50,390 nucleotides of DNA, taken from Desulfuromonadaceae bacterium UBA2294 (lineage in GTDB: Bacteria; Desulfobacterota; Desulfuromonadia; Desulfuromonadales; UBA2294). A program made the translations under genes and the position numbers. The notes beneath the pieces are model-generated. The model had not been told where the DNA came from. It saw only the letters and a program-made list of their open reading frames with translations, and made no database searches. Shown here piece after piece: positions 20,196-39,756 of the stretch. The DNA lies in assembly GCA_002345625.1 (NCBI GenBank), contig DDWE01000026.1, positions 581-50,970 of the forward strand, given 5' to 3'. The stretch's first letter is position 1. Each line of letters opens with the position of its first letter.

Positions 20196-21422
20196 TCAAA
20201 AATACCAGCGCAGTAACGCCCCACCGCTGTCACCCATACTCCCGAACTCACTGCGCGGCAGTGAGGAACCGGGATAGGGCGGAGAGCCGTTGGCTACAGC
20301 ATAAAACAGGTCAAGACTCAGGTTGCCGGTCAGCGAGCAGGTGATCTGCGGGCGTAAAAGACTCGAGTCGTCATCCAAATTCCAGATCAGCAGGGTGCTG
20401 AGTGTGACCAGCGGGTGCATCTCCCAACTCGGCGAGATCAGCAGATAATGCCGGCCGAGCAGGGAACTGAGCCCCTCCCTGAGTGGCGCAGACGCCACCA
20501 CTTGCGGGTAACGTTGCGGGTCGCTGCTGCCGACGCCGTTGTAGAGCCCCTCAACCAACAGAACCAGACCGTTGTCGAAACGGTACCAGAATTCGATCCC
20601 TCCCTGCCAGAAATATTCATACAAATCGCCGCCAGGAGTATCGACATCCTGGCCGCGGTAAGCGGTTGCTTCAACCTTGACCCCGAGAGATTTAATATCA
20701 CCGGCAAGCCCGACGCCCAACAAAGGGCGGTGACGCAAACTGCCGGTCAGGGCTAGGAGATCGACGTTGTTGAAGGTGTCGGCATAGGTAAGCAGATAGC
20801 TGTTTTCACGGGCGGTTTCGCCAAAGACGATGATGCCGTTGGTTTGACTGCCGCGATTTGTTGAAAAGATCGCACGCACAGCATCGACACCGGGGCGGAC
20901 ATCGGTGTCGAGAGCTTCGGGCGAGAAGGGGTTGATGACGTCGAGGGGCGACGCGATAACGATACGGCCGAAGCCGATCGCCTGACGCCCCATACTCCAG
21001 TCGAACGCACCGTGGCGGCCGCGGAGCAGCAGACGGTCGATCTGCAGGGTGTCGGCAAGATGTTCTGTCCCGCCCCAACTGCCTTCAAGATCGAAGTAAC
21101 GACCGGATGATGTGGAGGGTAGTGGCGTTTGGAGTGGAGAACTTCGGTACAGGATCAGGTTGTCGAGGGCCAGCTCGAAGCGAAGACCCGGTTGCAGCTC
21201 GTGCTGCAGGTCGAGACGTTGCCCCGAGGCGGTGAAAGTGCTGTGTTCCCCTCCAGGTCCTGGTGGCGCGGCAGAGACGACCGAGAGGCTTTTCAGGTGC
21301 CCACTGACTTCAAAAGCCAGCACTGGACCGGCGCATGACAGACTGAACAACAGGACGCAAAGTCCGAATCGCCATCGCGGTCGCCGGTGACCCGGACGGT
21401 TACAGTGGTTGGCGCACATCAT
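20196..21422 (-). CDS. Putative outer-membrane beta-barrel protein (porin-like, family not assigned)
   Basis: Has a signal peptide (RRPRWRFGLCVLLFSLSCAGPVLA). The sequence is Gly/Tyr/Asp-rich with an alternating pattern, and it ends in LLRWYF with a terminal Phe, typical of outer-membrane barrels. Start ATG 21422 is chosen provisionally; the ORF track opens at 21470. Confidence 0.6.
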   Translation of the reverse strand: MMCANHCNRPGHRRPRWRFGLCVLLFSLSCAGPVLAFEVSGHLKSLSVVSAAPPGPGGEHSTFTASGQRLDLQHELQPGLRFELALDNLILYRSSPLQTPLPSTSSGRYFDLEGSWGGTEHLADTLQIDRLLLRGRHGAFDWSMGRQAIGFGRIVIASPLDVINPFSPEALDTDVRPGVDAVRAIFSTNRGSQTNGIIVFGETARENSYLLTYADTFNNVDLLALTGSLRHRPLLGVGLAGDIKSLGVKVEATAYRGQDVDTPGGDLYEYFWQGGIEFWYRFDNGLVLLVEGLYNGVGSSDPQRYPQVVASAPLREGLSSLLGRHYLLISPSWEMHPLVTLSTLLIWNLDDDSSLLRPQITCSLTGNLSLDLFYAVANGSPPYPGSSLPRSEFGSMGDSGGALLRWYF

Positions 21423-22089
21423 TTTCAAGTTGCCCGTCACGCAGACGGACAACACGTTTGGCGTGGGCAATCACTTGCGGATCGTGGGAACTGAACAGAA
21501 AGGTGACGCCCTCTTTTTCATTCAGTTCGCGCATCAGGTTCAGCAGCTCTGCTGCCGTATGGGAATCGAGGTTGGCCGTCGGCTCGTCGGCCAGGATCAC
21601 GGCCGGTTTCGGGGCGATGGCGCGGGCAATGGCAACGCGCTGTTGCTGACCGCCGGAGAGCTCCCCCGGGCGCCGATTCTTGAGCTCGGCAATATCGAGA
21701 CGCTCAAACAGCTCGTCGATGCGGGCCCGTCGCTCGGCCGGCGCGATCCCCTGCAACAGGAGGGTAAATTCGGCATTCTCCGCCGCCGTCAGAACCGGGA
21801 TCAGGTTGTAGGACTGGAAGATGAAGCCGATACGATGCAGCCGGAAATCGGCCAACTGGCGCGAGGAGAGATCGTCGTAGTTGACGCCATCGACGGCAAT
21901 AGCGCCTTCCGTTGGACGATCGAGGGCTCCGACCATATTGAGAATAGTGGTTTTGCCGCTGCCGGACGGACCGGCGAGAACGGCGAAATCCCCCGCCTTG
22001 ATAAACAGGCTGAGTTCAGAGAGGGCGGCGATGTGCTGGCTGCCGCTGGTATAAATTTTGGTCACATTGCGCAGTGCGATAAGGGACAT
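21400..22089 (-). CDS. ABC transporter ATP-binding protein (LolD/MacB type)
   Basis: Walker A GPSGSGKTT, signature LSGGQQQRVAIARA and Walker B ILADEPT are all present. Confidence 0.93.
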   Translation of the reverse strand: MSLIALRNVTKIYTSGSQHIAALSELSLFIKAGDFAVLAGPSGSGKTTILNMVGALDRPTEGAIAVDGVNYDDLSSRQLADFRLHRIGFIFQSYNLIPVLTAAENAEFTLLLQGIAPAERRARIDELFERLDIAELKNRRPGELSGGQQQRVAIARAIAPKPAVILADEPTANLDSHTAAELLNLMRELNEKEGVTFLFSSHDPQVIAHAKRVVRLRDGQLENDVRQPL

Positions 22090-22196
22090 GCCGGTGTTTC
22101 TCCGTTAGCGGCGAGGTGTGAGCCGCGATTTTATGATGTCACTACAGCGGTATAAAACAAAAGCGTTCAAAACATAATTAAAAGTCAAACCCGATC

Positions 22197-22273
22197 ATCA
22201 CGAAGGAGACGAAGCACACGAAGAGAGGCAGACACCCTTGTTTTAACTTCGTGCTCTTCGTGCCCTTCGTGGT
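22197..22273. repeat. Imperfect inverted repeat built from 9-nt CACGAAG-containing units, lying inside an operon gap
   Basis: The left arm (22197-22223) is ATCACGAAGGAGACGAAGCACACGAAG. The right arm (22247-22273) is CTTCGTGCTCTTCGTGCCCTTCGTGGT. The reverse complement of the right arm matches the left at 22 of 27 positions. The loop is 23 nt. Confidence 0.7.
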
Positions 22274-22300
22274 GAACAGCTCTTGCAGATTTTTTTGTCT

Positions 22301-23533
22301 TCAGCTATTGCGCATCGCCACCGCTGGCGCAGTGCGGGCCGCGCGGTTGGCCGGGTAGAAAGCGGCCAGCGCAGCGAGCAGCGGCATCAGAATCGCCATG
22401 CGTAGCATGTACTCGAAATCCCAGGTGGCGCGCAGGACCGGGTCGAAAATGACGCCACCGAACTCCATCGACTCGGGCAGAAAGCGGCGCAGGTCGATGC
22501 CGACATCGGTCAGGTACCAGGTCAGCAGGCTGCCGAGTGCGCTCCCGAGAAGCATGGCGATCAGGCCGAGCAGGAGCGCTTCGCACAACACCATGGCACG
22601 CAGACGCCAGGGGCTGGCTCCGAGGGCTAACAACAGGCCGAACTCCGGCAATCGTTCCATCACCGCCATCAGCAGGGTATTGACGACACCGATGCTGACA
22701 ATGGCGACAATGACCAGAAAAATGAATTTTTGACTGGCATAGTCGAGCTTGATTGCATTGGCGAGGTTCGGCATCGCCGCATCCCAGGGGATCGCCTGAA
22801 GGTCACCCGGCGGCAACAGGGCGCGCACCCGTTGCAAGACGGCACCGCTCTCATCCGGACGATTGAGCATGATGGCGATTTCGTGCACGGCATCCGGACG
22901 CCCGGCGAGGAGGGCGGCACGTTGCCGTCCGACCATAACCAGTGATCTGTCGATATTGCGGATCCCCGATTCGACGGTGCCGCGGACAAACAGCAGTTCG
23001 CTGGCCAGTTCCCCGTCGGCGCCCTGGGCGGTGACGACAAACTTCTGACCGATTTCAAGGCGCAGTTCCTGCAACAGTCGACTGCCGATCAGCGCGTCGC
23101 GGCCATCGGCACTCGGCAGCAGGGCCGGCAGGTCGAGTCGACGCAATAGCGGGTTGACCAGCCCTTCGGCGGTCGGATCGATGCCGGTGAGCAGAATCCC
23201 CCGACTCTCCCGGCTCGATTGTGCCAGCGCCGGCAGGTAGAGTCGCTCGACCACCCCGTCGACGCCGGGAAGTGCCGCAATCTTTTGCGGCAGGTCTGCC
23301 GGCACAAAGGTGAGGCGGTCGTCGCGGCTGACGGCATAGTCGCCGCGGTAGATGGAGATATGGCCGGAACCGGCGCGAACGCCGTTGTCGATCATCTGCG
23401 CATAAACGCCAAAGGAGAGGTTGTGAAAGCCCTGCACCAGCATGAGGCTGAAACTCATGGCGATCAGGGTGATCAGGGTTCGACGGCGATTCCGCCAGAG
23501 ATTGCGCCAGGCTAAAGTGAGCGTCATCATCAA
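22301..23533 (-). CDS. ABC transporter permease, FtsX/LolC-LolE/MacB family
   Basis: 410 aa. Begins LAWRNLWRNRRRTLITLIAMSFS (TM1), followed by a large periplasmic loop and then three C-terminal TM segments. Confidence 0.88.
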   Translation of the reverse strand: MMMTLTLAWRNLWRNRRRTLITLIAMSFSLMLVQGFHNLSFGVYAQMIDNGVRAGSGHISIYRGDYAVSRDDRLTFVPADLPQKIAALPGVDGVVERLYLPALAQSSRESRGILLTGIDPTAEGLVNPLLRRLDLPALLPSADGRDALIGSRLLQELRLEIGQKFVVTAQGADGELASELLFVRGTVESGIRNIDRSLVMVGRQRAALLAGRPDAVHEIAIMLNRPDESGAVLQRVRALLPPGDLQAIPWDAAMPNLANAIKLDYASQKFIFLVIVAIVSIGVVNTLLMAVMERLPEFGLLLALGASPWRLRAMVLCEALLLGLIAMLLGSALGSLLTWYLTDVGIDLRRFLPESMEFGGVIFDPVLRATWDFEYMLRMAILMPLLAALAAFYPANRAARTAPAVAMRNS

Positions 23534-23535
23534 GG

Positions 23536-24762
23536 TCAGTCCATCCTGATCGCGGCGACCGGTTGCAGCCGGGCGGCCCGTCGGGCCGGGAACACCCCGG
23601 CGATCAACGTGGTGAGCAGCAGCATCAATGTCGGGTCGAGCAGGTTGCGCAGCTCAAGGACGGTGTGCAGGCGTGGCGGCAGGGTGCCGCCGGCGTAGCT
23701 GATCGGTGTAATCCAGGCCGAGAGATCGAGTCCGTTATCGCGCATGAGCGCACACAGCACCAACCCACCGGCAACGCCGAGGCTGGCTCCGAGCAGCCCG
23801 AGCAGGATCGATTCAAGCAGCACCAACAGGCGAATGCGTCCCGGTCGCAGACCGATGGCCATCAGGATGCCGAATTCGCGGGTGCGCTCCATCACCGACA
23901 TGAACAGGGTATTGAGGACGCCAAGGCCGGTGGCGAAATAGAGGATGACGCTGAAGATCATCCGACTGACATCAAAGGAGGCGATCGCTTCGCGCATCTG
24001 GGGCAGCAGGGTCCCCCAATCGACGATGCTCACCCCTTCGGGCAGCAGTGGGCGCAGGCGCGCGGCAGTTTCTGGTGCCGACATCGGATCGGCGATCGCC
24101 AGCGCCACCTCATGAACCTGCCCCGGCAGGGCCAGGGTGCGTTGCAGCCAGCCAAGCGGAACCAGCAGCAGGCCGTTATCATGCGCACTGTCACCGGTCT
24201 TGAAGATGCCGCGGACAATCAGCAGGTCGTTGCCGATGGAACCGTCGGCGGCCTGGGTGACAAAAACCAGCTCGGCGCCGGGTTTGACCCCGAGGCGTCG
24301 GGCCAGGGTTTCACCGATGATGGCGCCGCGGTCATCTCCATCGTTTAACGCTGAGCCGGCAACCAGCTGCCGTTGCAAACTGGTGACGCCGGCCTCCTGG
24401 CTCGGGTGGACGCCGAGCAGTTCCGCCGGGTAGCTGTTGTCGGTGTGGGAGATCAGGCCGTAGCCGCGCAGGCGGGGCGATAGTCCGGTCACCTGGTCGC
24501 TGTCTGCGAGCCTCTCAATAAGGGGGAGATCGGTTTCAGCCAGCGTGGTGTAGAGATCATGGTTCTCCTGATAATCGCCTTCGCTGATCACCAGGTGACC
24601 GTGATACTGCTCGGTCGCCGAAGCGAGGATATCGCGCAGCATACCGGAGAAGATACTCAGGGCGAGGATCAGCAGGGCGAGGGAGACGATCATGGCTGAC
24701 AAGGTCAACAGCGAACGACGACCGTTGCGCCACAGATTTCGATATGCAAGAGAGAACAGCAT
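23536..24762 (-). CDS. ABC transporter permease, FtsX/LolC-LolE/MacB family
   Basis: 408 aa. Begins LAYRNLWRNGRRSLLTLSAMIVS and has the same topology as its neighbour. The gap to the next gene is 2 nt. Confidence 0.88.
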   Translation of the reverse strand: MLFSLAYRNLWRNGRRSLLTLSAMIVSLALLILALSIFSGMLRDILASATEQYHGHLVISEGDYQENHDLYTTLAETDLPLIERLADSDQVTGLSPRLRGYGLISHTDNSYPAELLGVHPSQEAGVTSLQRQLVAGSALNDGDDRGAIIGETLARRLGVKPGAELVFVTQAADGSIGNDLLIVRGIFKTGDSAHDNGLLLVPLGWLQRTLALPGQVHEVALAIADPMSAPETAARLRPLLPEGVSIVDWGTLLPQMREAIASFDVSRMIFSVILYFATGLGVLNTLFMSVMERTREFGILMAIGLRPGRIRLLVLLESILLGLLGASLGVAGGLVLCALMRDNGLDLSAWITPISYAGGTLPPRLHTVLELRNLLDPTLMLLLTTLIAGVFPARRAARLQPVAAIRMD

Positions 24763-24769
24763 GTAAGGG

Positions 24770-25504
24770 TCAGTTTTTCAGGTTGCGCAGGGAGAAGAAA
24801 GCAGCTTTGATCGAGATATCGAAGTCGATGGCATCGTAATGGATCACGGTCTGTTCATTTGGCTTGTCCAGCGGTTGCACTGTCATCCGCAACGGAATGA
24901 CGCGTCCAGCGACGCGGGTGACCTCGTCAAAGACGATCTCCCGCACCGGGACCATTTTTTCGTCAAAATAGGTGACCCGACCCGGAACCTCTTGCGGCCG
25001 GATGATTTCATAGACCACCTTGCCCCAGATCACCGCTGCATCCGGTTTCGGCAGACAGGCAATGCGATACTGCTCCGGAGTCTCCTCGAGCAGCTCAAAG
25101 GTGTAGTCTTCATCGATGTGGTTGGCCTTGACCAGATCGTCGTTGGTGATGTGACTCCCCATCCAGGCCCCACCCATCATCGAGGGGGGGACCTTGATCA
25201 CCCGATCGACCTTCGGCAGATAGTTCCAGACATTGCGCTCGACCTTGAGGGTTGCGACGCCCGCCTCTTTGGCCGGCGCCAGAATCCGTACCAGAAAATG
25301 CTCCCGCCCCAGCGACCACGACTCCATGGTCAGGGAGCGCTCCCAGTGCTCGGCGCGTACCTGCATGGTCATGACGGTCTTGGACGACAGGCCCATGTAC
25401 TGTTGCTCAATTTTACGGATCAGTCCGCGCAGACCGGCGGCCGCTGCCAAGCTCGGCAGCAACAGAAAAATGATTAGAAAGGCGAACCGGGATGGACGAC
25501 GCAT
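24770..25504 (-). CDS. LolA-like outer-membrane lipoprotein-sorting (carrier) protein
   Basis: 244 aa with a signal peptide. The motif VWNYLPKVDRVIKVPPSMMGGAWMGSHITNDDLVK is typical of the LolA_like family. Confidence 0.8.
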   Translation of the reverse strand: MRRPSRFAFLIIFLLLPSLAAAAGLRGLIRKIEQQYMGLSSKTVMTMQVRAEHWERSLTMESWSLGREHFLVRILAPAKEAGVATLKVERNVWNYLPKVDRVIKVPPSMMGGAWMGSHITNDDLVKANHIDEDYTFELLEETPEQYRIACLPKPDAAVIWGKVVYEIIRPQEVPGRVTYFDEKMVPVREIVFDEVTRVAGRVIPLRMTVQPLDKPNEQTVIHYDAIDFDISIKAAFFSLRNLKN

Positions 25505-26661: not shown

Positions 26662-29600
26662 TTACAGCCGGTCGATCCAGGACAGGGCGTCCTTAACCGA
26701 GGTCTGGTCGAATTTGAAGCGGAAGTTCAGGTAGGGGCCCTGGGCCGTGTAGTTGCCCTGGGCGAAATCGTCGTCACGATAACCGGTGACGTTGTAGCCG
26801 AGGCTGACCCAGAGATTTTCCGCCGGATTGTAGCCGACCGAGCCCCCACTGCGCCAGTCGATTTGGCCGATCTCCCAGGTGTGCAGGGCTCCACCGTGCA
26901 CGCCGACATCCCATTTCTGACCAAGGTCGCGCCGGTATTCGGCCGAGAGCAGATCGGTGTAGCCGCTCCAGGTCTGATCAAGCAGGTCCTCGCTGACAAA
27001 TTTGCAACCATACTGGAACGATAACTGATTGATCCGGTCCGGCTTGTAGTTGGCGTGTAGGTTGTTGATCACGCGCCAGCTGCGCGAGCCGCCGCTGCCA
27101 CCGGTCTGTTCACTATGGGTATCGAGCCGATCAAGGAGAATCCAGCGGCTGCGGTCGGGACGCCAGACTCCGCTGAGGCTGATCTCGACATTGTTTGAAT
27201 TGCCGCCGGCACGCTCCGAACGGTACAGGGTGGTGCGAGCGCCGAGACCGACTCCGGGCTGGATCCGGCCGGTGATGCCACTGGCGAGCCCGTAGCGGTC
27301 TTCGCTGTCAGAGGTACGGAATTCTGCGCGATTCCACCATTTCCAGTTTTCGCCTTCGGTCGCGCCACCGAGGGCCAGGGCGGTAAAGTCATCGTCCGCG
27401 GCGGCTCCCGGAACGGCCGGATTGTAGCGGTCGGTGCTGTTGCTCAAGGCCTGGGCCCGATCGAAGGAGAAATCGAGGGTCCAGCGTTTGACCTGCCATG
27501 ATTGCTGCAGACCAAACAGGGCAAGGAGACGGCTGCTGTTGTCGTCATTGACGGTACGTTGTACCGAGCTGTCGATGCGTCCGCCCTGCCAGGGGGTGGA
27601 ACGCAGACCGAGACGACTGCTGTTGCCGCCGCCGGAATCGCTGTGGATAAACTCCTGCTCACCGTAGATCGACAGCGGCTGCATCACTTTGAATTCAGCG
27701 CCGAGCAGGGTGCGCGTCGGGTAATCGACGTTTTCGTTGTTGCCGATCGCCTGCTCGTGGCGTGCCTGGAGGTTCAGGCGGCGCAGCGGCTGCCATTCGC
27801 TGCCAGCAAAGACCTGGTTGGAAGGGAGGTGACTGCCATCGGCCAGTCGGTCTTCGGCGCGGCGCGCACCAACGCGCAGGTTGGATTTGGCCTGTTGCAG
27901 GGTGACGGCCCCCTCAATGACATTGCGCCAGGCGTTGGTGTCAATGCGCTCTTCGCGGCTGATCAGACCCTCAACCCCGAGCTGTTTGTTCAATTGATAA
28001 TCGGCCTGGGCGCCGATTTTGCGCGTCGAATCTTCACCGGCGCTGGTTTGGCCGAGCCCGAAACCGCTCTCTTGTTCGCGCCACCAGACCTGACTGTTGA
28101 ACCGGTTGGAAGAGTGCTTGAGTTCGGTCAGCCAGGCGGTGGCGTTGTTGTCAACACCGAGATTGCGATTTTCTGTTCTGGCCAGTTCGGCCCGCAGGAC
28201 AGTGGCGTCAGTCAGGTTCAGCGTGACGTCGCTGCCGTAGAGACTCCCTTTCTTGCTGCCGAGCTCTTCACGCACGTAGGTGGCACCGATTTCGGCACGA
28301 TTGCCCAGTCGGGTGGCGGCGCGGCCACCATAGGTCATGGCACTTTCACTGCCACTGGGGACTTCGTAATCGACGACAATAAAGATCGGGTTGAAGTCGG
28401 CATCGCGGCTTGGGACCGGAGCCTTGAAAAACAGGGTGCCGCTGTAGGGGTCGAGGTCGTAGTCGACGTATCGGGTCAACGGGCGCTGCAGCAGGACAAC
28501 GTCGCTGCGGAAGCGATCACGGGTCTCCAACATCAGCTTGTCGGAGTTTTCAACGATCAATGTATGGCTCAGGCGGTAAAGGCCGGAGGTGCCATCCCCC
28601 TGAATTTCATCGCGGACGAAGGCCTGGCCGGTGTCGCTGGCAAAGGCAACAGCGTCGCCTTGCTTGCCGTGCCACTCGGTCTTCACCCCGGTTAAACTGC
28701 GGCTGTAGCGCGAGAGCTCGGTGACGGTCAGGCCGGTGTCGAAGTCGCCGAACAGCGCATAGAACTGATCGCGTTCGATCTTTAAAAACAGGTTGCGGCT
28801 GGTGCTGGCGTCGTTGTGTTGAACACTGGCGTCACCGTAGAGCAGGTAGTAGCGGTTCGGGTCGATATCGTCGTGCAGGCTGCGCCCCTCGCGGTTTGGC
28901 CGGGCGCTGTCGTAAGCGGCGGTGACCAGCCATTTCCCCTGTACTTTCCCCTTGGCGTAGAAGGCGACGCGACCATCGTTGTAGAGATCCTCCTCCACAT
29001 CGGCGGCCGATTCCATGTTGCCGCTGATGGTGTTGTAGCCGACCGTCCCTTCTGCCAGGCCGACCAGGATCCAGTCCTTACGCTGCTCGCCGCCGACATC
29101 AACCGTCAAGTCGATGGTCTGGTCGACATAGACCAGTTGACTCTGATAACGCCCGCTGGCCATCACCGGCGCGAAGCGGACAATCCCATCCTCGCCGACA
29201 TCGATGGTCGAGGCCGATTCTGGTTGGTCAAAAGCACCGACCTGGTTACGCCAGGGACGCAGATCACCGCCATGGATTTCAACCGTGAACGGGGTGGCCA
29301 GAACCGATCCCTGTTCGTCCAGTGCCTGCAAACGGATCTGCAGCGGTGTGCGCCCGTCGGCGACATTCCCGGCGACATCAGCAACGACCAGACTGGCGAT
29401 GCCGCCGGTGCGCAGCAGTTTAATCGTCTGCTCGAAACGGGGATTGCCAAACGGATCGATCCCCTGCAGCACCAGATTGTGTGCTCCCGGGGCGCCGAGA
29501 TCGACGCCGATGTAGGTGTAGGTTGTCTGGCCGCTCTCGCTATCGGCGAGGGTCGCACCGATTTTTCCGGGCGCAATCTCTACCGTATCGAGCAGCAGGC

Positions 29601-32493
29601 GCGGCTTCAGTGTGCTGTCGAGGCGGACGCCGATAGCGCTGATCGGCTGTGCCAGCGTACTGCCGTCGGCCGGATAGAGGATACCAGGTGACAACGCCGA
29701 CGCCTTCGCTGCAGCCGGTTGCGGCCGGACCGATGCGGTTATGGATTGTGCCGGACCGGCATCGGCGGCCATCTGGTCGAGGGCCGGATCGACCACCACC
29801 CGGTGTAATACGCGCAGATCGGTGCGGCGGTTTTTCGCCATGCCATCCACGGTGGTGTTGCTGGCGATCGGTTCAGCGGCGGCCATGCCGCGCACGACAA
29901 TCTGCTCGGCAGAAAGCGGCAGGGCGGCGGCCAGTGACTTGGCAACAGCTTCGGCGCGGGCGGTGGACAGCTCGCCATTGTCACGATAGGCGATCCCCTC
30001 CCGCCAGCGGATGCTGCGCGCATCGGTGTGGCCGACGACGACAATCTTGATCAGATCGAGTTTTTGCAGCTCGGCGACAATGGCATCAACTGCACGCAAA
30101 TCTTCTGTGCTGAGTGTGGCTTCCAGGGTCGCAAAACGGGGCTGGAGCAGCAACTCCTGTACCTCGCGGCGTTCGCTGCGGGAAATCCAGACCAGAGAGC
30201 TCTCCGCTGCGGGAGTCACCAGGTCCTTGTCGGTACGCGTATCGAAAACCAGATGGGCGCTGGCCGGCATCTCTGTGGTTTCGGCGCTACTGTCGATCAG
30301 GGTGCGGAAACGGACTGTCTCCTGCCAGTCGCCGCTGCGTTCAGGCAGTGCGAAGATCAGGGTCTTGCCGTCGTGTTGCGGATCGGCGAGTGCCTCGCCA
30401 GACAGTTCACTGCTGCCGGGGAGATACTCCACCGCTGCCGGAAGCTCGACCTGCAGACGACGATTGAACAGCGGAATCTCGCGGCCGGAAAGGTTAACGG
30501 TGTAGGTCGCGGCAGAACCGGTCCCAAATTCATTGTCCAGGGCAATGGTCACCTCACCGTTGATCGGTTTGCGTGCCAGGTGAAAATCGACCCGCCACAG
30601 CGCCCCCTGCTGCACATCAATAAATCGGGATTCGGGGCGGCCGGCAGAGCGGCTGTCGTTTTCGCAGTCGAGGATTTCATACCCGACCGGGATGGTTTCC
30701 GTGTCGAGTTGCACCACGTGGCTGCCGGGTTGTACCGAAACAAAATGGTAACGGCCGGTATCGTCGGTGACGACGTTGCTGCCATCTTCCAGGTAGATAC
30801 GGATGCCGCCAAGTCCGGAGAGGGTGGTCTCATCGGCGTCGCAGTCGCCATCAAAGACCCGGCCGATGAGGAACGATTCGCTGCGGAACAGATCTTCAAT
30901 CACTTCGACCCCGGCACGTCCTTCATTAGAAATAATCGCCGGCAGGACGGTTGAGGCAGCACGGGCCCGGTTGATCGCCTGCCCGGGCTTTGCCCCGGCT
31001 CCGACCGCGACCGCGTAACGGATAACGGCCGTGGCACCGGCAGCAAGGTCGCCGACGGTGAAGGTCAGGCTGCGGCCATCAGCGGAGAGGACTGGCGTCA
31101 GTGGGGTGCCGGTACTGCTACGGGCCGAGCCGTCACGATAGCTAAAACCGAACGGGAGGCGGTCGGTGATCGTCACGGCCGGGACGACAGCGGTGTCGGT
31201 GTTGGTGACGCTGACGCTGTAGGCGAGGGTTTCGCCGATACCGATGCTGCTGCGGTCGGCACTCTTTTGCAACCAGAGGATGCCAGCGGTGGCGGTCGGA
31301 TCGAGCGGGACATCGATCCGGATCGCCGGACCGGGGCTGATGGTGAAGACGCCGCCGTAGGAGTCGGGTGCCAGCACGACATAGCCGCCGGCCGGCGCCG
31401 GGTTGGTGGACGGGAAGTTGTAGCTGGCCAGCGGCGTGATCTTCAGACTGTAATCCCCGGCTGGAATCAGCGGAAAGCGGTAGCCGCCGGGAGGGAAGTT
31501 GTATGTAACCGTACCGATGGTGAAACTGCTGCCGGTGATGACATGGCCGGGGAATGCGACCCCGTCGTCGCCGACAACAGTGGTTGCCTCGACGCCGGTG
31601 GCGTTGTCGATGAGGGTCACTTCAACCCCATCGACCGGTGTGCCGGTAAAACTGTCGAAGACTGTCCCGTAGGGGTCGACCAGAGCCTCGTCGCTGCTGC
31701 CATCGCCGTTGATCGGGTCGCGGTAGTCGACGGTGAGAGTGTCGTCGATGGCACTGTACAACTGACCGTCGAAGCCGACCGCTGCGGCCGGGGCCAGTGG
31801 CAGCGAACCGAGGAAGACGCCGGTATCGGGACCGGTTTCGGTCAGGCGCAGATACTCAAAATCGCCGGTCATCGTGCTGCGGATGGTCAGCTCAATGGTG
31901 TCGACCAGTATGGCGTCGAGATTGCGATCGCTATCGCTGAGGCGGATGACCACCAGCTCGCTGCCGGAAAAGATTGTCCCCGGAGTCAGGTCGCCGGGGT
32001 CGGGCGTCGGCAGAATGGTGCTGAAGACGCCGGTGCTGGCGCCATCGCTGCTGAAGCTGGTGGCCGGTACCGTGGTGCCGGCGGGGTTGGCGGCGTAACG
32101 GAGCAGCTCAACGACGCCGGGAGTCGGTAGCGGGACCGTCGCCGTGCTGACCGTGTTGGACAGAATGACAAGGGAGTAGCCAAAAGCATCGAAGTTGAGC
32201 TGAGCGGTGTTGTCGATGCTGGCACCGGCCGGCGGAGCGGCGGTTGCCACATTCGGCAGCAGGGCCATGGTCAGCAGGAGTAAACAGGCCAGCTTCTGAC
32301 CGCGACGCACCAGAGTGTTGATGGTCGCGGACACAAGCCGACCGTTCAGCCGGCTGCTTGCGCAGCCGACTGAACCGGTCGAGAGGTGAACCAATAATCC
32401 GGTCATCCAGGCACAGCTCTCCCGGCGCCCGGCCGCAAGAACGCTGCGGAGGCGAAGGAGTTGTGCCCGGATTGTGCTCAGACGAAACAGCAT
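26662..32493 (-). CDS. Giant secreted envelope protein (gene D): Ig-like (DUF11, Cna-B/SdrD-B-like) modules, an OmpA-type peptidoglycan-binding module, Big-like modules, and a barrel-like C-terminal region of about 800 aa
   Basis: A single uninterrupted 5.8-kb frame. The signal-like segment is [23 protein letters not shown]; the true start is uncertain, with in-frame ATG 32406 and two GTG codons further downstream as alternatives. A DUF11 module reads [32 protein letters not shown]. The OmpA-like module ([12 protein letters not shown]...[10 protein letters not shown]...NRRTDLRVL) lies at about nt 29800-30130. The C-terminus reads [35 protein letters not shown]. Confidence 0.85.
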   Translation of the reverse strand: [1943 protein letters not shown]

Positions 32494-32550: not shown

Positions 32551-33666
32551 CTAGTCGACGGTTACTTCAAAGGTGATTGTGGCAAATGACCCGGCAGCGA
32601 TGGTGCCGACATTGACGCCACCCGTGCTGTCCCCTACCAGCGCACCATTCAGGCGAGTTGTACCAGGTGTCAGTGTGGTGTAGATCGGTGCCGTATCAGT
32701 CACCACAACGTTGCTCAGATCCGTCGCCTCATTGTTGGTGATGGTCAAGGTGTAGGTGATGGTGTCCCCCGGTTTGGCGGTGAGGGTGCTGGCTGCTTTG
32801 GCAAAGGACACGTTCAGTGAATTGATGGTAGTGATGACCTGGTTGCCGACGGCCAGTGAGGTGCTGTAGTCGACGGTGGCGCCGCCAGAGTCGGTACCTG
32901 TGGTGGTGAAGGTGACGTTCGTGGTGTAAGTTCCAGTGGTCTCCCCGACATTCAGGGTGCCGGTGTCCTGATCCATGGTCAGGGAGCCGTACTCACCGAT
33001 AGGGTCAGCGGCGGCGGCGGTGCTGGCAGCGACGCCGTGGGCGGTGATGTCGTCAACCAGCTGAATGGTGGTCGTGACTTCCGGCGTACCGGTTGTCTGG
33101 GCGGTGCCGGCCGTGATGGTGCCGACGGTGTAGGCGTTGCCGTTGAGGATTACGGTTTCGGTGCCGGCAAGACCAGTCTCGGCCCCGGCGGGCAGGCAGA
33201 CTTCGTCTGCCCCTGCAACAACGCCCTGGCAAGCGACAACGATGCCGCCCCAAAGAGTGATGTTGTCGATGGTGAAGGTCTCAACCGAGTCGGTAGCTAT
33301 GGTTGCAGAATTGGTCGAATTGATGGCCGTTACCGTGTAGGTGTCAGGACCGTTGCTGTTGGAGGTGATGGTGTAAACGTAGCTGACGGAACCGCCGACG
33401 GTTGTCGACCGGGTCAGTGGGGTGACGCTGATCGTCGGAGCTGCAGCCAGAGTGTCGACGGTGACCGTGGTGCCGTTCGAGGTTTGATTGATGCCGGTCG
33501 CTGCAAGAAAGTCGTAGGTGACCGAGGCTTCGTTGAAAATGGTGGCGCCGGCGCTGACCGCTGCTTGAGCAGCAGAAGGGAGCAATACGCTGGTGATCGC
33601 CAACAGGGCGAGGCCGAACAGAGTGTTGCGGCCACTACGGAAAAAACGGGTTCGTTGCTGATTCAT
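32551..33666 (-). CDS. Secreted Thr/Gly-rich DUF11-repeat protein, candidate fibre subunit (gene C)
   Basis: Start taken at ATG 33666 (MNQQRTRFFRSGRNTLFGLALLAITSVLLPSAAQA), which follows an AAAGGAGA SD; the ORF track opens at 33846. The C-terminal DUF11 domain reads KPGDTITYTLTITNNEATDLSNVVVTDTAP. Confidence 0.85.
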   Translation of the reverse strand: MNQQRTRFFRSGRNTLFGLALLAITSVLLPSAAQAAVSAGATIFNEASVTYDFLAATGINQTSNGTTVTVDTLAAAPTISVTPLTRSTTVGGSVSYVYTITSNSNGPDTYTVTAINSTNSATIATDSVETFTIDNITLWGGIVVACQGVVAGADEVCLPAGAETGLAGTETVILNGNAYTVGTITAGTAQTTGTPEVTTTIQLVDDITAHGVAASTAAAADPIGEYGSLTMDQDTGTLNVGETTGTYTTNVTFTTTGTDSGGATVDYSTSLAVGNQVITTINSLNVSFAKAASTLTAKPGDTITYTLTITNNEATDLSNVVVTDTAPIYTTLTPGTTRLNGALVGDSTGGVNVGTIAAGSFATITFEVTVD

Positions 33667-33930
33667 GATGGATCTCCTTTTGTTACGGTTGATGTTCTTG
33701 TTCTCGGTTAGATGACGTTGCTTCAAGTTGCATTGGTCAATTAGGTCAGTCTGCATGGCAAATTCTCCAGCGCTCCGGCGGCTTGCCATGACGCCACCAT
33801 CGGCGTCTTCCTGGCAGTGGCCCGGCCCGCTCATGGCGGGTGGCAAGGTTGCGTTGTTGATGGGTGTGCAAAAAGGAAGGGTTCATGGCGTTCTCCTTTG
33901 ATTATGAGTGATCGAAAAAAGGGTATCGGT

Positions 33931-34413
33931 TTATTTAACCCGGACCTTGAACCCCAACTCGCCCTTGCTGCCGGCGGGGATGGTCTTCAGGTTCCAGCGA
34001 ATGGTCGTGATATCAGCCGCCGTTGCCGGGCGCGGTTTTCCGGTTCCGGCATCGGTAATCTTCAGGTCGACGAGCGGAGCGAAGGTGGCCCCGCCATCGA
34101 TGGAAAAATCGATGCTGGCGCCGTCGCCGGTGGCGCTGCCGTCGATATAAACGGTCAGGTCGGGCACTTTGTTTTTAAAGGCCAGATTGGTTGCCGGTGC
34201 GCTGGCGGTGTTGGCGTAATTCAGGGTGTAGATCAGCTCAGTCCCCGGTTCCGCGGCTTCGGCCGGGACCCGCTTGGTGACCGGAGTACCGTTTTCCATG
34301 ACGACAATCTCTTTTTCGGCCTTAACGGTCAGGGTGATGGGTTGTTCGTCGGCGGCAAATGCCGGTAGGGCGAAGGCCAGAAACAGCAGGGTGACAATAA
34401 GGTAGCGGTACAT
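33931..34413 (-). CDS. Small secreted single-DUF11-like-domain protein (gene B)
   Basis: 160 aa. It has a signal peptide (MYRYLIVTLLFLAFALPAFA) and a strong AAAGGAGA SD. The domain reads EPGTELIYTLNYANTASAPATNLAFKNKVP. Confidence 0.8.
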   Translation of the reverse strand: MYRYLIVTLLFLAFALPAFAADEQPITLTVKAEKEIVVMENGTPVTKRVPAEAAEPGTELIYTLNYANTASAPATNLAFKNKVPDLTVYIDGSATGDGASIDFSIDGGATFAPLVDLKITDAGTGKPRPATAADITTIRWNLKTIPAGSKGELGFKVRVK

Positions 34414-34433: not shown

Positions 34434-37400
34434 TTAGCGGACCTGAACCTGGAACTGTAGATAAAAACGGCTGCCGGGGGCCATCGATCCGGTCAGCGGC
34501 TGGCGCCAGTTGGTGACATTGCCATCGGTCCCGGCCGGAGCGCCGCCATTACCGGAGGCCGGGGTGTAGCCGAACGTGGTATCGCCTGTCTGGGAGAAAA
34601 GGGGTGTGCCAAGTGCCAATCCAGAGGCCGGTGCCCCTTCGACAAAGTTGATATGGACACCGGGGGCGTAGGTGTCGGTCGCCAGATAAAGGTACGGGCT
34701 CAGGTAGTCATCGATGTAGATATTGGTCGCCGGAGCGCTGCCGGAATGGTCAACCTGAATCCAGTAAGTGAAATTTTCACCCGGTTTGGCGCTGCCGGAC
34801 GTTGACCACTTGATAATGCTCAAAGGTGGTGTCGGCGATGCGACGGCGAATGAACTGAGGCCGTAGTCGCTGATCGCCCCTTCCGTCCCCTCGTCGGCAT
34901 CGGTGCGAATGGTCCAGTTGCCGGAGGCTGCGTCAGCCGGCAGGGTGTAGATGTACTCAAAAGTTTTGGTTGCTGCACCGGAGTCAGCGTACAGGCTCAT
35001 CGGTAGGTCGTTGACTTGCACGACCCCGAGGGCATCGGTCAGGGTGAGTCGGGCAGCGCTGATGTCATAACTGCCAAAGGGGTCGGAGACCGTGCTACGG
35101 ATGTGGACCTCGGTCCCCGGAGCGACCGGCTGCGCCAGTGGTGCTCCGAGCGCATCAAAGAGAGCAAAGCTCTCGACATTGATGACCGTGGCGCTGTTGA
35201 GCTCGATGCGTGAGGTGTCGTTCGGGGTGATGGTTGCGTTGAATGGATGCAGCCAGACCTCTCGGTTAGACGTGTTGGCAACGACCAACTCGATCACCGC
35301 CCCCTGGGGAATGGATGTTGCCGGCATAGTGAACGAAAACGGATAGGTTTGCGGTGCCCCATTGGTCAGCGTTTGGCTGACGGTTTGTGTGTCAAGGTCG
35401 ACAGTGGTGGCACCGAGACGGTAGCGCAGGGTCAGGTCCAGCGAGACAGTGCGGTTGCGGTTGCTCTGAACGCGCATCTGCAGGGCGAGCGCGTAGTCGG
35501 CATTCAGATTTAGAATTGTCTGCAGTGCCGGACTCAAGGTCATGGTTGCGGTGGTTCCACTGGTCATCCGATAGTAGTTGATCGTGTTGCTCGAAGGGGT
35601 GCGGCTCAAATCCCCGGTCAGGCCGTTGCCGGTTGTCGGTGCCTGCACATAGAGCTGCTTGAGTCCGGATCCCGGAAGGGAGGCGCCGGCGATGATCAGG
35701 GTCGGTGCGGTCAGGGACGCCCCCGGTCCACCGGGGTTGATCACGGTGGCGCTGTTGGCAATGGGGCTGCCATTGGCGCCACTGACTTTGACCGTGTAGG
35801 TGATGGTGACAGTGTTTTTGGCCGGGACCGTAATTCCGCCAATATCGAGGAACCCGGTGCCGTTGGCGCCAGTGCCGGAGTAGGTGGAGTTGTTTATCCC
35901 GCCGCCGGTGCCGGTGACCGTAAAAGCGGTGATGTTTCCGGGGATGTCATCGGTGACCTGTACATTGCTGGCCGCAATCCCGCCGGTCTCCTTCAGGGTG
36001 ATGATGTAGCGCAGGATGTCGTCAAATTCGACATCGCCGCCGTTCTCATCAACGACGGTTTTGGTCGAAGTGGAGAGGTCGGGTTGCATAATGGTGAGTG
36101 TATAGTCCTCAACCTCGCCGTTGGTGGCAGAGCCACCGGGGGTGGCGGTGGTGACAAAGGGATCGGTGGTCAGCCGAAAGCGTGCGTAGGTGGTGCCGCC
36201 GGCAAGACCTGAGAGTCCGCTCCAGTTCAGAGTGGCTGTGCCGTTGGTGGTGCCGGTGGCGACATTGACCGAGACGCCTTCCGCCGTTTCGAAGGATCCG
36301 TTGCCATTAAAATCGATCCAGCCGACCAGATGGGCGAGGGAGCCGGTGGTGTTGTTCACCGTGACATCAACGGAATAGGTTGTGGAACTGGTGGCCAGAG
36401 CCGGAAAGGAGGCGATGCCATCCTCGTCATCACTGCCGGTGAGGTCGTCGCCATCGGCGGATGTGGTTGGCTGACCGGTCACTTCGTCATCGGGCAGGTT
36501 GGTGCCGAGGAAGATCTGATTACTGATACCGTGCCGCGGTCCGCCGCTTGAGGTCAGGGTGCGGTAGCTTTCGGGGGCGTCTCCGAAGTCGAAGCCCGGC
36601 AGGGTGCCGGAGCTGAAGATCAGGTGGAAAAAGACTGCGGAGTCCCAGTTGCGGTCGCCGGCATCGGCAATGGCTGCCTTGACATGATAGGTGGCGCCGG
36701 GGACGACGCTGATCGGCTGGTAGATGTAGTTGGTCCAGCCGTCGAGCTCGAGGTTGCTGTTGGTCGTGGCGACAGTGTTGTTGCCGCCGGCGGTATTGCC
36801 GTTGCTGTTGTCGGTGTAGTAGGCGGTGTTGGTGAGGCTGCCACAGTTGCCGATGTTGCCATATTGACCGACGAGACCGGTGTTGACCCAATTGATGGAC
36901 GTCAGGTCGCCACCCGGGGTCTTGGCAAAGTTTTCGGCGTTGTTCGAGTAGGGGCCATTGATGCCGGGGCCGCTGACAAAAATTCCGGTAACATCGTTGA
37001 AGGCGGTGCAGACATATTCGGGGAATTCATCCGAGCCAAACTGGAAGGGGATGGTCATGATCGATTGACTCGGGACAATGTCAAATTCGATGGCGATATA
37101 TTCGCCGTTGGCTGTCTGTCCCTCGAGGGCGATCATGTCCGGGTCGGTGACGTTTCCGCAGAGGGCGTTTGTCCAGCCTGATTGATTGTTTGGTGAGACC
37201 AGAGGGTCTGTTGGTTTGAGCGGGCCGGTGCCGAGAACCACGCCGCTGGCATCACCGAGGACCGGGCCGGGGCCGGTCGGGGTTGTCCCCTGGCTGAACA
37301 GCCCAACCGCCTGCGTACGGTTGGCGCAACCGTTGTTTGTGATGACCAGATTGCTGATGGTCACCCCGGCCCCTTGCAGGGCGGCCGTAATCTGCGCCGT

Positions 37401-37610
37401 GGTGACGCCGTCATTAGCGACAGTGTTGACGACGATAGCGTGACTGAACGATGGGGGAAGGGAAAAAAGCAAAAACAGTAAAACAAGGGACTTCTGCGCA
37501 AGGCAATTAAAGCGAAAAAGGCCAGAAACCTTAAACAGCCGGGCTGTGAAAAGGCGCAAGATTGTCACATGAAGCGCGCTAAATTGTCGATGATACGGCA
37601 AAAAGTGCAT
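34434..37610 (-). CDS. Large secreted adhesin-like protein (gene A): choice-of-anchor-L-like head, GEVED domain and DUF11 repeats
   Basis: 1058-aa ORF. The head segment DPDMIALEGQTANGEYIAIEFDIVPSQSIMTIPFQFGSDEFPEYVCTAFNDVTGIFV matches the choice-of-anchor L pattern. The segment FDFGDAPESY...WIDFNGNGSFE...NGEVEDYTL is a GEVED domain. DUF11 modules include ILRYIITLKETGGIAASNVQVTDDIPG and PGENFTYWIQVDHSGSAPATNIYIDDYL. The true start may be the in-frame GTG or TTG codons 42 to 51 nt downstream of ATG 37610, ahead of the signal-like segment KSLVLLFLLFSLPPSFSHA. Confidence 0.85.
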   Translation of the reverse strand: MHFLPYHRQFSALHVTILRLFTARLFKVSGLFRFNCLAQKSLVLLFLLFSLPPSFSHAIVVNTVANDGVTTAQITAALQGAGVTISNLVITNNGCANRTQAVGLFSQGTTPTGPGPVLGDASGVVLGTGPLKPTDPLVSPNNQSGWTNALCGNVTDPDMIALEGQTANGEYIAIEFDIVPSQSIMTIPFQFGSDEFPEYVCTAFNDVTGIFVSGPGINGPYSNNAENFAKTPGGDLTSINWVNTGLVGQYGNIGNCGSLTNTAYYTDNSNGNTAGGNNTVATTNSNLELDGWTNYIYQPISVVPGATYHVKAAIADAGDRNWDSAVFFHLIFSSGTLPGFDFGDAPESYRTLTSSGGPRHGISNQIFLGTNLPDDEVTGQPTTSADGDDLTGSDDEDGIASFPALATSSTTYSVDVTVNNTTGSLAHLVGWIDFNGNGSFETAEGVSVNVATGTTNGTATLNWSGLSGLAGGTTYARFRLTTDPFVTTATPGGSATNGEVEDYTLTIMQPDLSTSTKTVVDENGGDVEFDDILRYIITLKETGGIAASNVQVTDDIPGNITAFTVTGTGGGINNSTYSGTGANGTGFLDIGGITVPAKNTVTITYTVKVSGANGSPIANSATVINPGGPGASLTAPTLIIAGASLPGSGLKQLYVQAPTTGNGLTGDLSRTPSSNTINYYRMTSGTTATMTLSPALQTILNLNADYALALQMRVQSNRNRTVSLDLTLRYRLGATTVDLDTQTVSQTLTNGAPQTYPFSFTMPATSIPQGAVIELVVANTSNREVWLHPFNATITPNDTSRIELNSATVINVESFALFDALGAPLAQPVAPGTEVHIRSTVSDPFGSYDISAARLTLTDALGVVQVNDLPMSLYADSGAATKTFEYIYTLPADAASGNWTIRTDADEGTEGAISDYGLSSFAVASPTPPLSIIKWSTSGSAKPGENFTYWIQVDHSGSAPATNIYIDDYLSPYLYLATDTYAPGVHINFVEGAPASGLALGTPLFSQTGDTTFGYTPASGNGGAPAGTDGNVTNWRQPLTGSMAPGSRFYLQFQVQVR

Positions 37611-38932: not shown

Positions 38933-39756
38933 TGTAAATCACCAAAAGAGATCAGCTCGATGCCGCGTGCGCGAACTAGCGCTGCCACCGTCGGAGCGGA
39001 CAGCGCGGCGAGCTCGGTTTCGCGCGCCAAAGTGGCAAAGGGATGGGTCAGGTCACGATAGCCGGGATGGACCATCAACTCCCAGTCGCCAGGCTGGAGC
39101 TGTGTGAGCAGGGCCAGCAGTTGCGTTTCGTTGAGTTGATTAAGCAGCGACATGCCGTACAGACCCTGCGGAGTTATGATGTCAGCTTTGTGCAGCGTTT
39201 TGGTCAAAGATGGTGCCCGTTGCCGATAAAGAGCCAGTTCGCCACTGAGTTCCAGCGGGGCGTCATCGTTTTGATCCAACGGTAGTGGCAGTCGTGCCCG
39301 TCTGATGCCGCAGGTCTGGGCCGCTGTGCAGAAGGCCTCCGCAACCGGTGTAAACAACGCACAATGCTGATGGGTGTCAAGATGGTCAGGGGTGACTCCG
39401 ACTGTGCAGGCCCGGTCGATCTGGGCCAGAAACTCACGGGTCAAAGTTGATGTTTCGATGTGGCCTGTTTCGAAACTACGCCGGGCAGCGGTTTTGCCAA
39501 GAAAGCGTCCGGAATCGTCGGTCAGTCCGGGGATCGGGCCGCTCAGTGCAGTTCCTTCAGACAGGTTGAGGTGAATACCAAGGGGTAGCCCCTCGGCGGC
39601 GGCGTGCTGTGCCGCTTCACGCCAGGTCGGTCCGGTGGTCAGCAGTGAGGCACTGGTGACAACGCCACGTGCAAACGCGGCAAAGATGCCTCGATCGGTG
39701 GCGGCTCCGTTGCCGAGGTCGTCGGCATTGACAATCAGACGGGCTGGCGGCATCAC
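38920..39756 (-). CDS. ChbG/HpnK (YdjC) family carbohydrate deacetylase
   Basis: 278 aa. Contains LIVNADDLGNGAATDRGIFAAFARGVVTSASLL, the YdjC-family N-terminal signature. Its end overlaps the glycosyltransferase start by 13 nt. Confidence 0.8.
   Translation of the reverse strand: MMPPARLIVNADDLGNGAATDRGIFAAFARGVVTSASLLTTGPTWREAAQHAAAEGLPLGIHLNLSEGTALSGPIPGLTDDSGRFLGKTAARRSFETGHIETSTLTREFLAQIDRACTVGVTPDHLDTHQHCALFTPVAEAFCTAAQTCGIRRARLPLPLDQNDDAPLELSGELALYRQRAPSLTKTLHKADIITPQGLYGMSLLNQLNETQLLALLTQLQPGDWELMVHPGYRDLTHPFATLARETELAALSAPTVAALVRARGIELISFGDLQCAC

Follow-up and report, generated by a model that had tools for sequence, protein, structure and literature searches.

A predicted giant outer-membrane barrel protein encoded last in an operon that divides a CLIPPER domain between its gene products: candidate base of a surface fibre

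The window analysed here is a stretch of 50,390 nucleotides (nt) of contig DDWE01000026.1 from Desulfuromonadaceae bacterium UBA2294. Positions 26662..32493 of its minus strand hold an open reading frame (ORF) of 1943 codons and a stop codon that is uninterrupted throughout and encodes a protein of 1943 amino acids (aa), called the giant below. An earlier note on this DNA had proposed a single protein of ca. 1900 aa in which a signal-like segment, a donor-like strand, surface-type modules, an OmpA module and a barrel-like region follow one another; the single frame is borne out, and the domain order is essentially correct by Pfam and AlphaFold2 (AF2). The giant is not understandable alone: its gene closes a conserved operon, and the proteins encoded there bear one or the other of two complementary parts of a split CLIPPER domain (PF01345, the former DUF11).

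Three genes, p1058, p160 and p431, lie directly upstream of the giant gene on the same strand. The first, p1058 (34434..37610, minus), codes for a putative tip adhesin with choice-of-anchor L, GEVED and DUF11 domains, whose C-terminus (...FYLQFQVQVR, followed by the stop codon) falls inside a CLIPPER domain. The product of p160 (33931..34413, minus) consists of a signal peptide and a single truncated CLIPPER-like domain. The third gene, p431 (32551..33666, minus, counted from M61), encodes a 431-aa DUF11 protein with a signal peptide, the N-terminal motif AGATIFNEASVTY and a C-terminus (...ATITFEVTVD, then the stop codon) that again lies within a CLIPPER domain. Its Pfam DUF11 match is at the extreme C-terminus and covers profile positions 4-84 of 114, a pattern kept in relatives.

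All three proteins stop 0-2 residues after the strand G..a.i.F.V.V, inside a CLIPPER domain. When hmmalign was used to place C-termini of relatives on a profile built from the complete CLIPPER domain of the giants themselves, the column for the strand with the Asn was empty in every p431-like (33/33), p160-like (67/67) and p1058-like (22/22) sequence; the column of the catalytic Asp held Asp in 32 of 33 p431-like and in all 22 p1058-like C-termini, and Asn in 46 of 67 p160-like ones. The motif of the two missing strands is carried by the mature N-termini of p431 (AVSAGATIFNEASVTY...SNGTTVTV) and of the giant (APPAGASIDNTAQLNF...SNTVSTATV). We refer to the truncated C-termini as acceptors and to the N-terminal motif, which p160 lacks, as the donor; in the giant the putative donor hairpin is APPAGASIDNTAQLNF...LSNTVSTATV (aa 86-125, 32119..32238, minus), recognised by the motif conserved in relatives. 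This motif, G..I.N.A...(Y/F)...SN.v.v.v, is found right behind the signal peptide in ~60 relatives across phyla, with N10 and A12 at least 90% conserved; exceptions in which the donor Asn is lost include Geomobilimonas and Geobacter AOG1. The donor segment lines up colinearly with the two final strands of a complete CLIPPER domain. The donor-like strand, a guess of the earlier note, was its most informative point.

Both end motifs are concentrated upstream of the giants. An acceptor-type C-terminus was detected in 169 of 236 upstream same-strand ORFs versus 16 of 239 downstream ones (Fisher p 2e-52), and in 44 of 1146 minus-strand ORFs. The corresponding numbers for the donor motif were 61/236, 3/239 (Fisher p 3e-17) and 17/1146. 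Such a bias towards upstream ORFs indicates that the end motifs are specific to the operon. The usual gene order in other genomes is a large tip protein, a protein of ~330 aa, a p160-like protein of ~165 aa, a protein of ~350-450 aa and the giant or, by type, tip, donor plus acceptor, p160, donor plus acceptor, giant; in many loci, the first position is occupied by a gene of p1058-like size with an acceptor-type end. Homologues of p160 are present upstream of 55 of 59 full-length giants (defined below), and each of them ends in ...G.v.F.v.vK before the stop codon. A (D/E)YT.IRW motif is nearly invariant in the p160 family, and no other accessory protein of the operon is conserved as well.

Chimeras in which the C-terminus of a subunit was joined to the N-terminus of the giant from the same locus match the complete CLIPPER domain inside the giants colinearly and without a break at the junction (hhalign, 98.5% probability, E 2e-15), and the K, D and N residues are in register. 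In an alignment of 15 chimeras, every sequence has the Asp and the donor Asn, and 12 have the Lys; the count for Lys is taken from this alignment only, because hmmalign left most acceptor Lys positions as gaps. A profile of the donor alone matched the last two CLIPPER strands with P 0.036, a weak but correctly placed match, versus 0.3 and an unrelated place for the reversed control. A search of PDB sequences with a chimera gave no useful match.

A natural fusion joins the two halves in one polypeptide. At L034:6281-12460, in a Syntrophaceae metagenome-assembled genome (MAG), a subunit of ~400 aa and a giant form one ORF of 2059 aa. Residues 6-398 are 55% identical (E 1.6e-113) to the separate 401-aa subunit of another locus, L044, and residues 402-827 are 56% identical (E 1e-165) to the mature L044 giant, beginning with its donor motif. 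Three residues at the junction replace the stop codon of the subunit and the signal peptide of the giant, which makes the acceptor and the donor contiguous. The L034 locus also contains two tandem p160-like genes. A Pfam test on concatenated acceptors and donors was dropped as non-discriminating: real donors added 3-8 bits, but controls extended the DUF11 match too.

The real start of the giant is probably downstream of codon 1. M30 is the likeliest candidate and was chosen because GGGAGA is located upstream of it. The signal-like segment of the earlier note corresponds to a Sec-type signal peptide (aa 30-85 if counted from M30; 32239..32406, minus) with a hydrophobic core at aa 68-85, and cleavage, judged by reading the sequence, is expected between ...PNVATA and AP after aa 85 (signal peptide end RRGQKLACLLLLTMALLPNVATA followed by AP; the motif was also read as LLLLTMALLPNVATA followed by AP). 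Relatives have an equivalent hydrophobic segment with an AxA site immediately before the conserved donor motif. The starts given in the ORF list for the giant and p431 are well 5' of the signal peptides, with extra stretches at 32406-32493 and 33667-33846 (minus); the likely starts are M30 and M61, respectively. The two genes are in-frame with each other and 57 nt apart.

The N-terminal 1050 residues of the giant were modelled by AF2 from an alignment of 60 sequences, with a mean predicted local distance difference test score (pLDDT) of 87 and a predicted template modelling score (pTM) of 0.39; the low pTM is expected, because the domains are arranged as beads on a string. In the model, aa 86-118 form four short strands. 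They are followed by beta-sandwich domain 1 (aa 127-272, 31678..32115, minus; pLDDT ~90), which is conserved in 68 loci, and by a CarboxypepD_reg/CnaB-like beta domain (aa 276-400, 31294..31668, minus), for which the CarboxypepD_reg match at aa 276-311 was below threshold (26.8-28.8 bits at a cut-off of 32.3) and Foldseek retrieved SdrD and pilins. Next comes a complete internal CLIPPER domain (aa 405-535, 30889..31281, minus; aa 406-532 in the AF2 model), predicted as a DUF11 module by the earlier note and matched by Pfam at aa 408-514 with 42.2 bits (cut-off 24.6). Its Lys410/Asp444/Asn508 triad is kept, the corresponding columns K325, D359 and N423 of alignment A3 being at least 90% conserved, and the spacing resembles that of K715/D748/N806 in 9IFR, a solved CLIPPER domain in which the Lys/Asp/Asn triad makes an intramolecular isopeptide bond (PMC12617251). 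In the giant the bond itself is putative.

The fourth domain (aa 540-641, 30571..30876, minus) is SdrD_B-like, with a sub-threshold Pfam match at aa 549-606 (21.8 bits at a cut-off of 29.7) and two conserved cysteines (columns C466 and C525 of alignment A3, nearly invariant), and is also seen in the AF2 model. The fifth is a beta-sandwich without a family match (aa 647-769, 30187..30555, minus; AF2). Foldseek matches of the AF2 model are to stalks of surface proteins, among them SdrD, the Gram-positive pilins SpaD and RrgB, UafA, antigen I/II, integrin legs and MG domains of alpha-2-macroglobulin. As to the Cna-B/SdrD-B-like modules proposed earlier, the assignment is only weakly supported: it reaches sub-threshold scores in Pfam and is backed at the level of fold by the Foldseek matches to SdrD and Gram-positive pilins.

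The rod is followed by an alpha/beta OmpA-like peptidoglycan-binding domain (aa 779-898, 29800..30159, minus; previously placed at nt 29800-30130), matched by PF00691 at aa 787-889 (E 1.2e-12, 48.4 bits at a cut-off of 27.2). Its closest solved relatives are the wall-binding domains of PomB, TssL and MotB. The binding motif GHTD / N.ELS.ARA / NRR is intact, as can be seen in the alignment of GHTD...NGELSTARAEAV...KNRRTDL with PomB (3wpw) and TssL; a check of these residues, suggested by the earlier note, finds them kept, and the domain is predicted to be of the peptidoglycan-binding type. A disordered linker (aa 900-933, 29695..29796, minus; pLDDT 40-55) and two pre-barrel beta-sandwich domains without a hidden Markov model (HMM) match (aa 937-1133, 29095..29685, minus; pLDDT ~90) complete the N-terminal part. 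The earlier note had read Big_1-like modules here. Pfam gave no match to Big_1 or any other HMM at aa 900-1135, AF2 places the two beta-sandwiches in this region, and the Big_1 identity was dropped.

The C-terminal 814 aa (aa 1130-1943) were modelled from an alignment of 70 homologues. The model is all beta (pLDDT 82, pTM 0.74), with the giant beta-barrel region, supported by AF2 and Foldseek, at aa 1236-1926 (26716..28788, minus); two low-confidence strands at aa 1177-1195 are possibly part of it, and the length of the region is ~690-750 aa. Four or five strands are followed by a small beta insert, 32 consecutive antiparallel strands of 10-17 residues each, joined by turns of mostly 2-6 residues, the last strand YLNFRFKF and a short helix. 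Of the 50 best Foldseek matches in the PDB, two are apolipoprotein B-100 and the rest are membrane beta-barrels, almost without exception from the bacterial outer membrane: Deinococcus SlpA and the SDBC (30 strands), SprA (36) of the type 9 secretion system (T9SS) and LptD (26) lead the list, and TonB-dependent receptors, the FimD and PapC ushers and MtrB are also found, with TM-scores of at most 0.29 and identity of at most 14%. When this part was scanned alone, as the earlier note had advised, it matched no curated family above threshold (NCBIfam gave nothing, Pfam only sub-threshold Porin_4 and OMP_b-brl), and a search of PDB sequences returned only a marginal match to 2knr (E 0.0026). The region is thus predicted to be a giant outer-membrane barrel of a new family. 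The barrel is probably closed, with ~32-38 strands, as suggested by the strand pattern and by Foldseek matches that are almost exclusively closed barrels.

The earlier view of the last ~800 aa as barrel-like rather than soluble repeats is supported by the 32 or more long strands of the model and by the outer-membrane barrels retrieved by Foldseek. Its estimate that the barrel is far larger than the 12-strand autotransporter type agrees with the model, and its comparison with ushers and LptD was too low, since these have 24 and 26 strands. The inserted globular segment it suspected is a small beta domain of 66 aa, GDGTSGLYRL...FFKAPVPSRD (aa 1299-1364, 28402..28599, minus; model residues 170-235). 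This insert is the best-conserved part of the barrel: the aligned segment that spans it (barrel-query residues 160-245) has a mean column identity of 72%, versus 35% for the whole of alignment A1, which contains the barrel region and N-terminal flanks of relatives. Searches for relatives of the insert in the PDB and in Pfam found none. The tail behind YLNFRFKF, given before as 17 aa, has 15 aa and is modelled as a helix (aa 1930-1942, 26668..26706, minus; model residues 801-813); D800 and Q801 in this area are nearly invariant among relatives.

A search with the barrel region yielded more than 400 relatives, and the 120 best, which were listed, share 39-48% identity over 89-99% of the length, those with a name being called either "hypothetical" or "OmpA family". 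A scan of species-representative genomes retrieved 544 loci, the 80 best of which belong to Desulfuromonadales (including Geobacter relatives), Desulfobacterales, Nitrospirota, Gammaproteobacteria, Betaproteobacteria, Lentisphaerota, Verrucomicrobiota and Myxococcales. A complete N-terminal module and the barrel are encoded by one ORF in 59 of 85 loci (1685-2306 aa, median 1992), and most of the other loci are cut off by contig ends. A profile search of 1.84 billion representatives gave 4862 clusters, defined at 50% identity, at E <= 0.001, and 2546 when the limit was set to E <= 1e-30. The barrel forms the C-terminal part of a protein of 1600-3000 aa in most of the best matches. The OmpA domain is present in 50 of 59 full-length relatives and is wholly absent from a second subclass of ~1700 aa that includes proteins of Ramlibacter, Polaromonas, Sphingomonas and Porphyrobacter.

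Several relatives (P0146, P0345, P0311, P0320, P0340, P0341, P0347 and P0298) carry cadherin-like repeats (VNE.PT...DPD.GD.H.Y...D.RFE) just N-terminal to domain 1, where the donor hairpin otherwise sits, and resemble single-chain adhesin versions. In others, additional complete DUF11-type domains separate the donor from domain 1. Both kinds of insertion fit an exposed, modular stalk. In the literature on CLIPPER/DUF11 domains and on donor-strand and isopeptide fibres, we did not find the operon or the barrel family described.

We put at about one in two the probability of the following interpretation, which starts from the sequence patterns above: the giant would be the outer-membrane base of a multi-protein fibre whose subunits are joined by donor-hairpin complementation, possibly locked by isopeptide bonds, with the barrel as conduit and anchor and the OmpA domain holding on to the wall. 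The CnaA-type CLIPPER domain of each upstream subunit, two strands short, would be completed by the N-terminal hairpin of the next protein. Since p1058 and p160 have a groove and no donor, they could only be distal ends or caps; proteins of the p431 type, with both, could extend or bridge, and the giant, which has a donor only, must in such a fibre be the proximal end. The head-to-tail order would then run from the tip adhesin p1058 (or p160 as a cap) through p431, perhaps repeated, to the giant as the terminal anchor. Because the acceptor Lys and Asp and the donor Asn are kept across the split, the joints may lock covalently by a spontaneous isopeptide bond and without sortase. p160, which usually lacks the catalytic Asp, would bind reversibly; with this feature and its high conservation, a cap or chaperone-like role is conceivable, with low confidence.

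As the operon encodes no other outer-membrane component, the barrel is the likely export conduit; this step and three further ones are less supported. The fibre and the giant's own N-terminal rod would pass through the barrel lumen as through an usher; the OmpA domain, the flexible linker and the two pre-barrel domains would stay in the periplasm and tie the assembly to peptidoglycan; and the conserved 66-aa insert would act as a plug or gate, analogous to usher plugs. An extracellular rod looks plausible from the adhesin and pilin-stalk Foldseek matches, the cadherin-bearing relatives and the choice-of-anchor L and GEVED domains of the tip. The puzzle raised earlier, a wall-binding domain between surface-type modules and an outer-membrane barrel, is softened and not solved: the OmpA domain is optional, and a wide barrel could pass the rod while OmpA stays periplasmic. 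That the whole forms a widespread new fibre class of bacteria with two membranes, with hairpin polymerisation free of sortase and PapD, Lys-Asn self-locking as a natural counterpart of SnoopCatcher, extrusion through a barrel of ~36 strands and a covalent chain from tip to wall anchor, is a tentative proposal that we consider possible rather than probable.

Several observations weigh against the fibre interpretation. The position of the OmpA domain between the rod and the barrel fits a periplasmic rod most simply; neither an energy source nor a chaperone was identified; the L034 fusion comes from one metagenome-assembled genome; and phmmer found p431-like genes in only 26 of 59 loci, yet motif-bearing genes occupy that place in most. 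The main rival sees the giant as a tether between the outer membrane and the wall, similar to SlpA and OmpM, in which the rod, the OmpA domain and the Ig-like domains are all periplasmic, the barrel is a porin or a structural protein, and the upstream CLIPPER proteins are periplasmic partners or unrelated adhesins. It offers the simplest topology, as nothing has to be threaded through the barrel; OmpA is intact and N-terminal to the barrel, and the top Foldseek matches, SlpA and the SDBC complex, pair an N-terminal wall-binding domain with a 30-strand barrel. We nevertheless consider it unlikely. OmpA is absent in 9 of 59 full-length relatives and in the whole ~1700-aa subclass, so the core function is something other than wall binding; it is not obvious what a rod with some five domains of the isopeptide adhesin-stalk type would do in the periplasm; some relatives bear N-terminal cadherin-like repeats; and an operon partner has typical surface-adhesin domains (choice-of-anchor L, GEVED).

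The N-terminal strands of the giant are structured in the AF2 monomer (pLDDT 73-88) and, judging from this model, may simply pack on domain 1; in controls of the concatenation test, a reversed donor extended the coverage and one unrelated N-terminus gained 6 bits. Both points also speak for a self-contained adhesin that exports the rod through its own barrel in the manner of an autotransporter, with neighbours that are independent secreted proteins with ordinary domain boundaries. An N-terminal passenger and a C-terminal barrel are the classical type Va order, and the cadherin-bearing relatives resemble single-chain adhesins. We regard this explanation as quite improbable: there is no match to PF03797 or another type V barrel, the strands number at least 32 rather than 12-16, and it leaves unexplained why three gene families always end two strands short, why the missing strands are always at the mature N-terminus of the next proteins and why the L034 fusion occurred exactly at the acceptor/donor junction. 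An assembly or frameshift artefact that fuses an OmpA/DUF11 protein with a separate barrel protein, named by the earlier note as what could undo its reading, is essentially excluded. A few metagenome contigs do show two genes, one for the N-terminal half and one for the barrel (L001, L003), or a locus interrupted by an IS66 element (L002), but a continuous frame of 1685-2306 aa is found in 59 genomes from several phyla, including the isolates Geomonas, Geomobilimonas luticola, Geobacter sp. AOG1, Desulfosarcina alkanivorans and Povalibacter uvarum, and most of the 150 best representative proteins listed reach this length as well; such recurrence of the fused architecture shows that the giant ORF is no assembly artefact.

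Among known systems, that of the giant would work most like chaperone-usher pili (FimD/PapC, a PapD-like chaperone, Ig-fold pilins) and yet is not a member of that family. Common to both are Sec-exported subunits, a (here putative) tip adhesin that lacks a donor and a large outer-membrane barrel with a small inserted domain encoded in the same operon. Completion of an incomplete beta-sandwich by the N-terminal donor of the next subunit would be a further parallel; the sequence pattern and the natural fusion support such a split here for a different fold. However, the giant operon has no sequence relation to Usher PF00577, PapD chaperones or fimbrial pilins: PF00577 was not matched by the whole giant (E up to 1) or by the C-terminal 814 aa alone (E up to 10), and family scans of the neighbouring ORFs of the window detected no PapD-like chaperone. 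The barrel has at least 32 strands versus 24 in ushers, the donor would be a two-strand hairpin inserted into a CnaA-type CLIPPER domain rather than a single strand inserted into an Ig fold, and the giant barrel protein itself bears the donor, a long rod (it would be the last subunit) and the OmpA anchor. No chaperone is obvious here, p160 being a candidate cap by inference only.

SpyCatcher and SnoopCatcher are engineered split isopeptide domains, and the "thread" filaments of the archaeon Sulfolobus acidocaldarius combine donor-strand complementation with isopeptide bonds between subunits (PMC9715654). As is proposed for the giant operon, a beta-sandwich is completed in trans by a strand of the neighbour, with Lys, Asn and an acidic residue across the joint. 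These systems are archaeal or engineered and have no outer membrane, whereas here the fibre would couple to an outer-membrane barrel and the isopeptide bond is suggested by conserved residues only. The layout of head, CLIPPER stalk and OmpA anchor recalls the Gram-negative fibrillar adhesin B9T28_05395 of Acinetobacter silvestris, which also ends in an OmpA-like anchor but is a single chain of 2129 aa for which no C-terminal giant barrel is described (PMC12617251); in the operon studied here, head, stalk and anchor are on several polypeptides, apparently joined via the split CLIPPER domain, and the anchor continues into the barrel.

The best structural matches, Deinococcus SlpA and the S-layer deinoxanthin-binding complex (8agd, 8ae1, 7zgx), and the OmpM tethers share with the giant an N-terminal wall-binding domain and a C-terminal giant barrel. 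TM-scores below 0.3 (at most 0.29) and 8% identity make this a generic structural resemblance only. Unlike the giant with its OmpA domain and Ig-like rod, they use SLH and a coiled coil (Pfam found no SLH domain in the giant), and they lack split-domain subunits. Type V secretion, classical and inverse, also unites an Ig-like or beta-rich passenger and an outer-membrane barrel in one polypeptide, and intimin/invasin even has a periplasmic peptidoglycan-binding domain (LysM). Its barrels, however, have 12-16 strands and belong to defined Pfam families that do not match the giant: PF03797 (Autotransporter) matched neither the whole protein nor the C-terminal 814 aa, and IAT_beta and Big_1 of inverse autotransporters gave no Pfam match, the barrel of the giant being C-terminal and not N-terminal. 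The wall-binding domain is placed differently as well, and trans-attached subunits are absent from type V systems. LptD/OstA had no match in Pfam or NCBIfam, with Foldseek TM-scores of 0.17-0.22. T9SS SprA, another of the top Foldseek matches, is similar in size, with 36 strands in a barrel made of a single chain, but shows no sequence similarity and is specific to Bacteroidota, where it acts with PorV, Plug and CTD signals, none of which are encoded in the window. The giant barrel resembles SlpA and SprA in size only.

If true, the fibre interpretation would add to the ways in which surface fibres are made and fixed to the cell in Gram-negative bacteria. It would combine donor-strand assembly, as in chaperone-usher pili, with domains stabilised by isopeptide bonds, as in Gram-positive pili, and would involve a single-chain outer-membrane barrel that is among the largest yet predicted. 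Family members (~4,900 clusters) carry at present no annotation beyond hypothetical, "OmpA family" or "DUF11 domain-containing"; thousands of them would gain a role, in Geobacter relatives, sulfate reducers, Nitrospirota, Gamma- and Betaproteobacteria, Verrucomicrobiota and Lentisphaerota. A naturally split, self-ligating CLIPPER domain, if it exists, would be directly useful as a new protein ligation pair. Quite apart from the fibre, the barrel represents a new and well-defined family of outer-membrane proteins whose conserved inserted domain invites structural study.

Antisense (plus-strand) ORFs of 287-397 aa cover parts of the giant gene at 27502-28695, 28816-29691, 30028-30954 and 31267-32130 and are most likely shadow frames of G+C-rich coding DNA rather than genes. 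The stretch directly upstream of p1058, at 37931-39756 and likewise on the minus strand, codes for a GT1 glycosyltransferase and for a YdjC-like protein; the pair could modify the fibre or be unrelated to it. Downstream of the giant gene, a cluster at 21400-25504 and 16044-20251 (minus) encodes an ABC ATPase, two FtsX/MacB-type permeases and a LolA_like protein, adjoined by a DUF2339 membrane protein (939 aa) and a DUF3999 protein (463 aa), and a 424-aa ORF at 20196-21470 next to it has no family. The LolA-like, ABC and FtsX genes were considered as parts of the system and dropped, since giants in other genomes are followed by unrelated genes; the ABC/DUF2339 cluster, which is not kept beside giants elsewhere, is probably a separate envelope system.

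In one gammaproteobacterial MAG (L002:8247-9698), the operon is split by an IS66-family transposase between the subunit genes and the OmpA-plus-barrel gene. In the window studied here, the adhesin operon and the ABC/DUF2339 genes lie in a region (~17000-40000) with a G+C content of 0.60-0.62, compared with 0.52-0.55 in the flanks, where the rpoA/L17 end of an operon for ribosomal proteins (13.7-15.3 kb) and, at 41.7-42.5 kb, a BamD/YfiO-like gene are located; the G+C-rich block may have been acquired.

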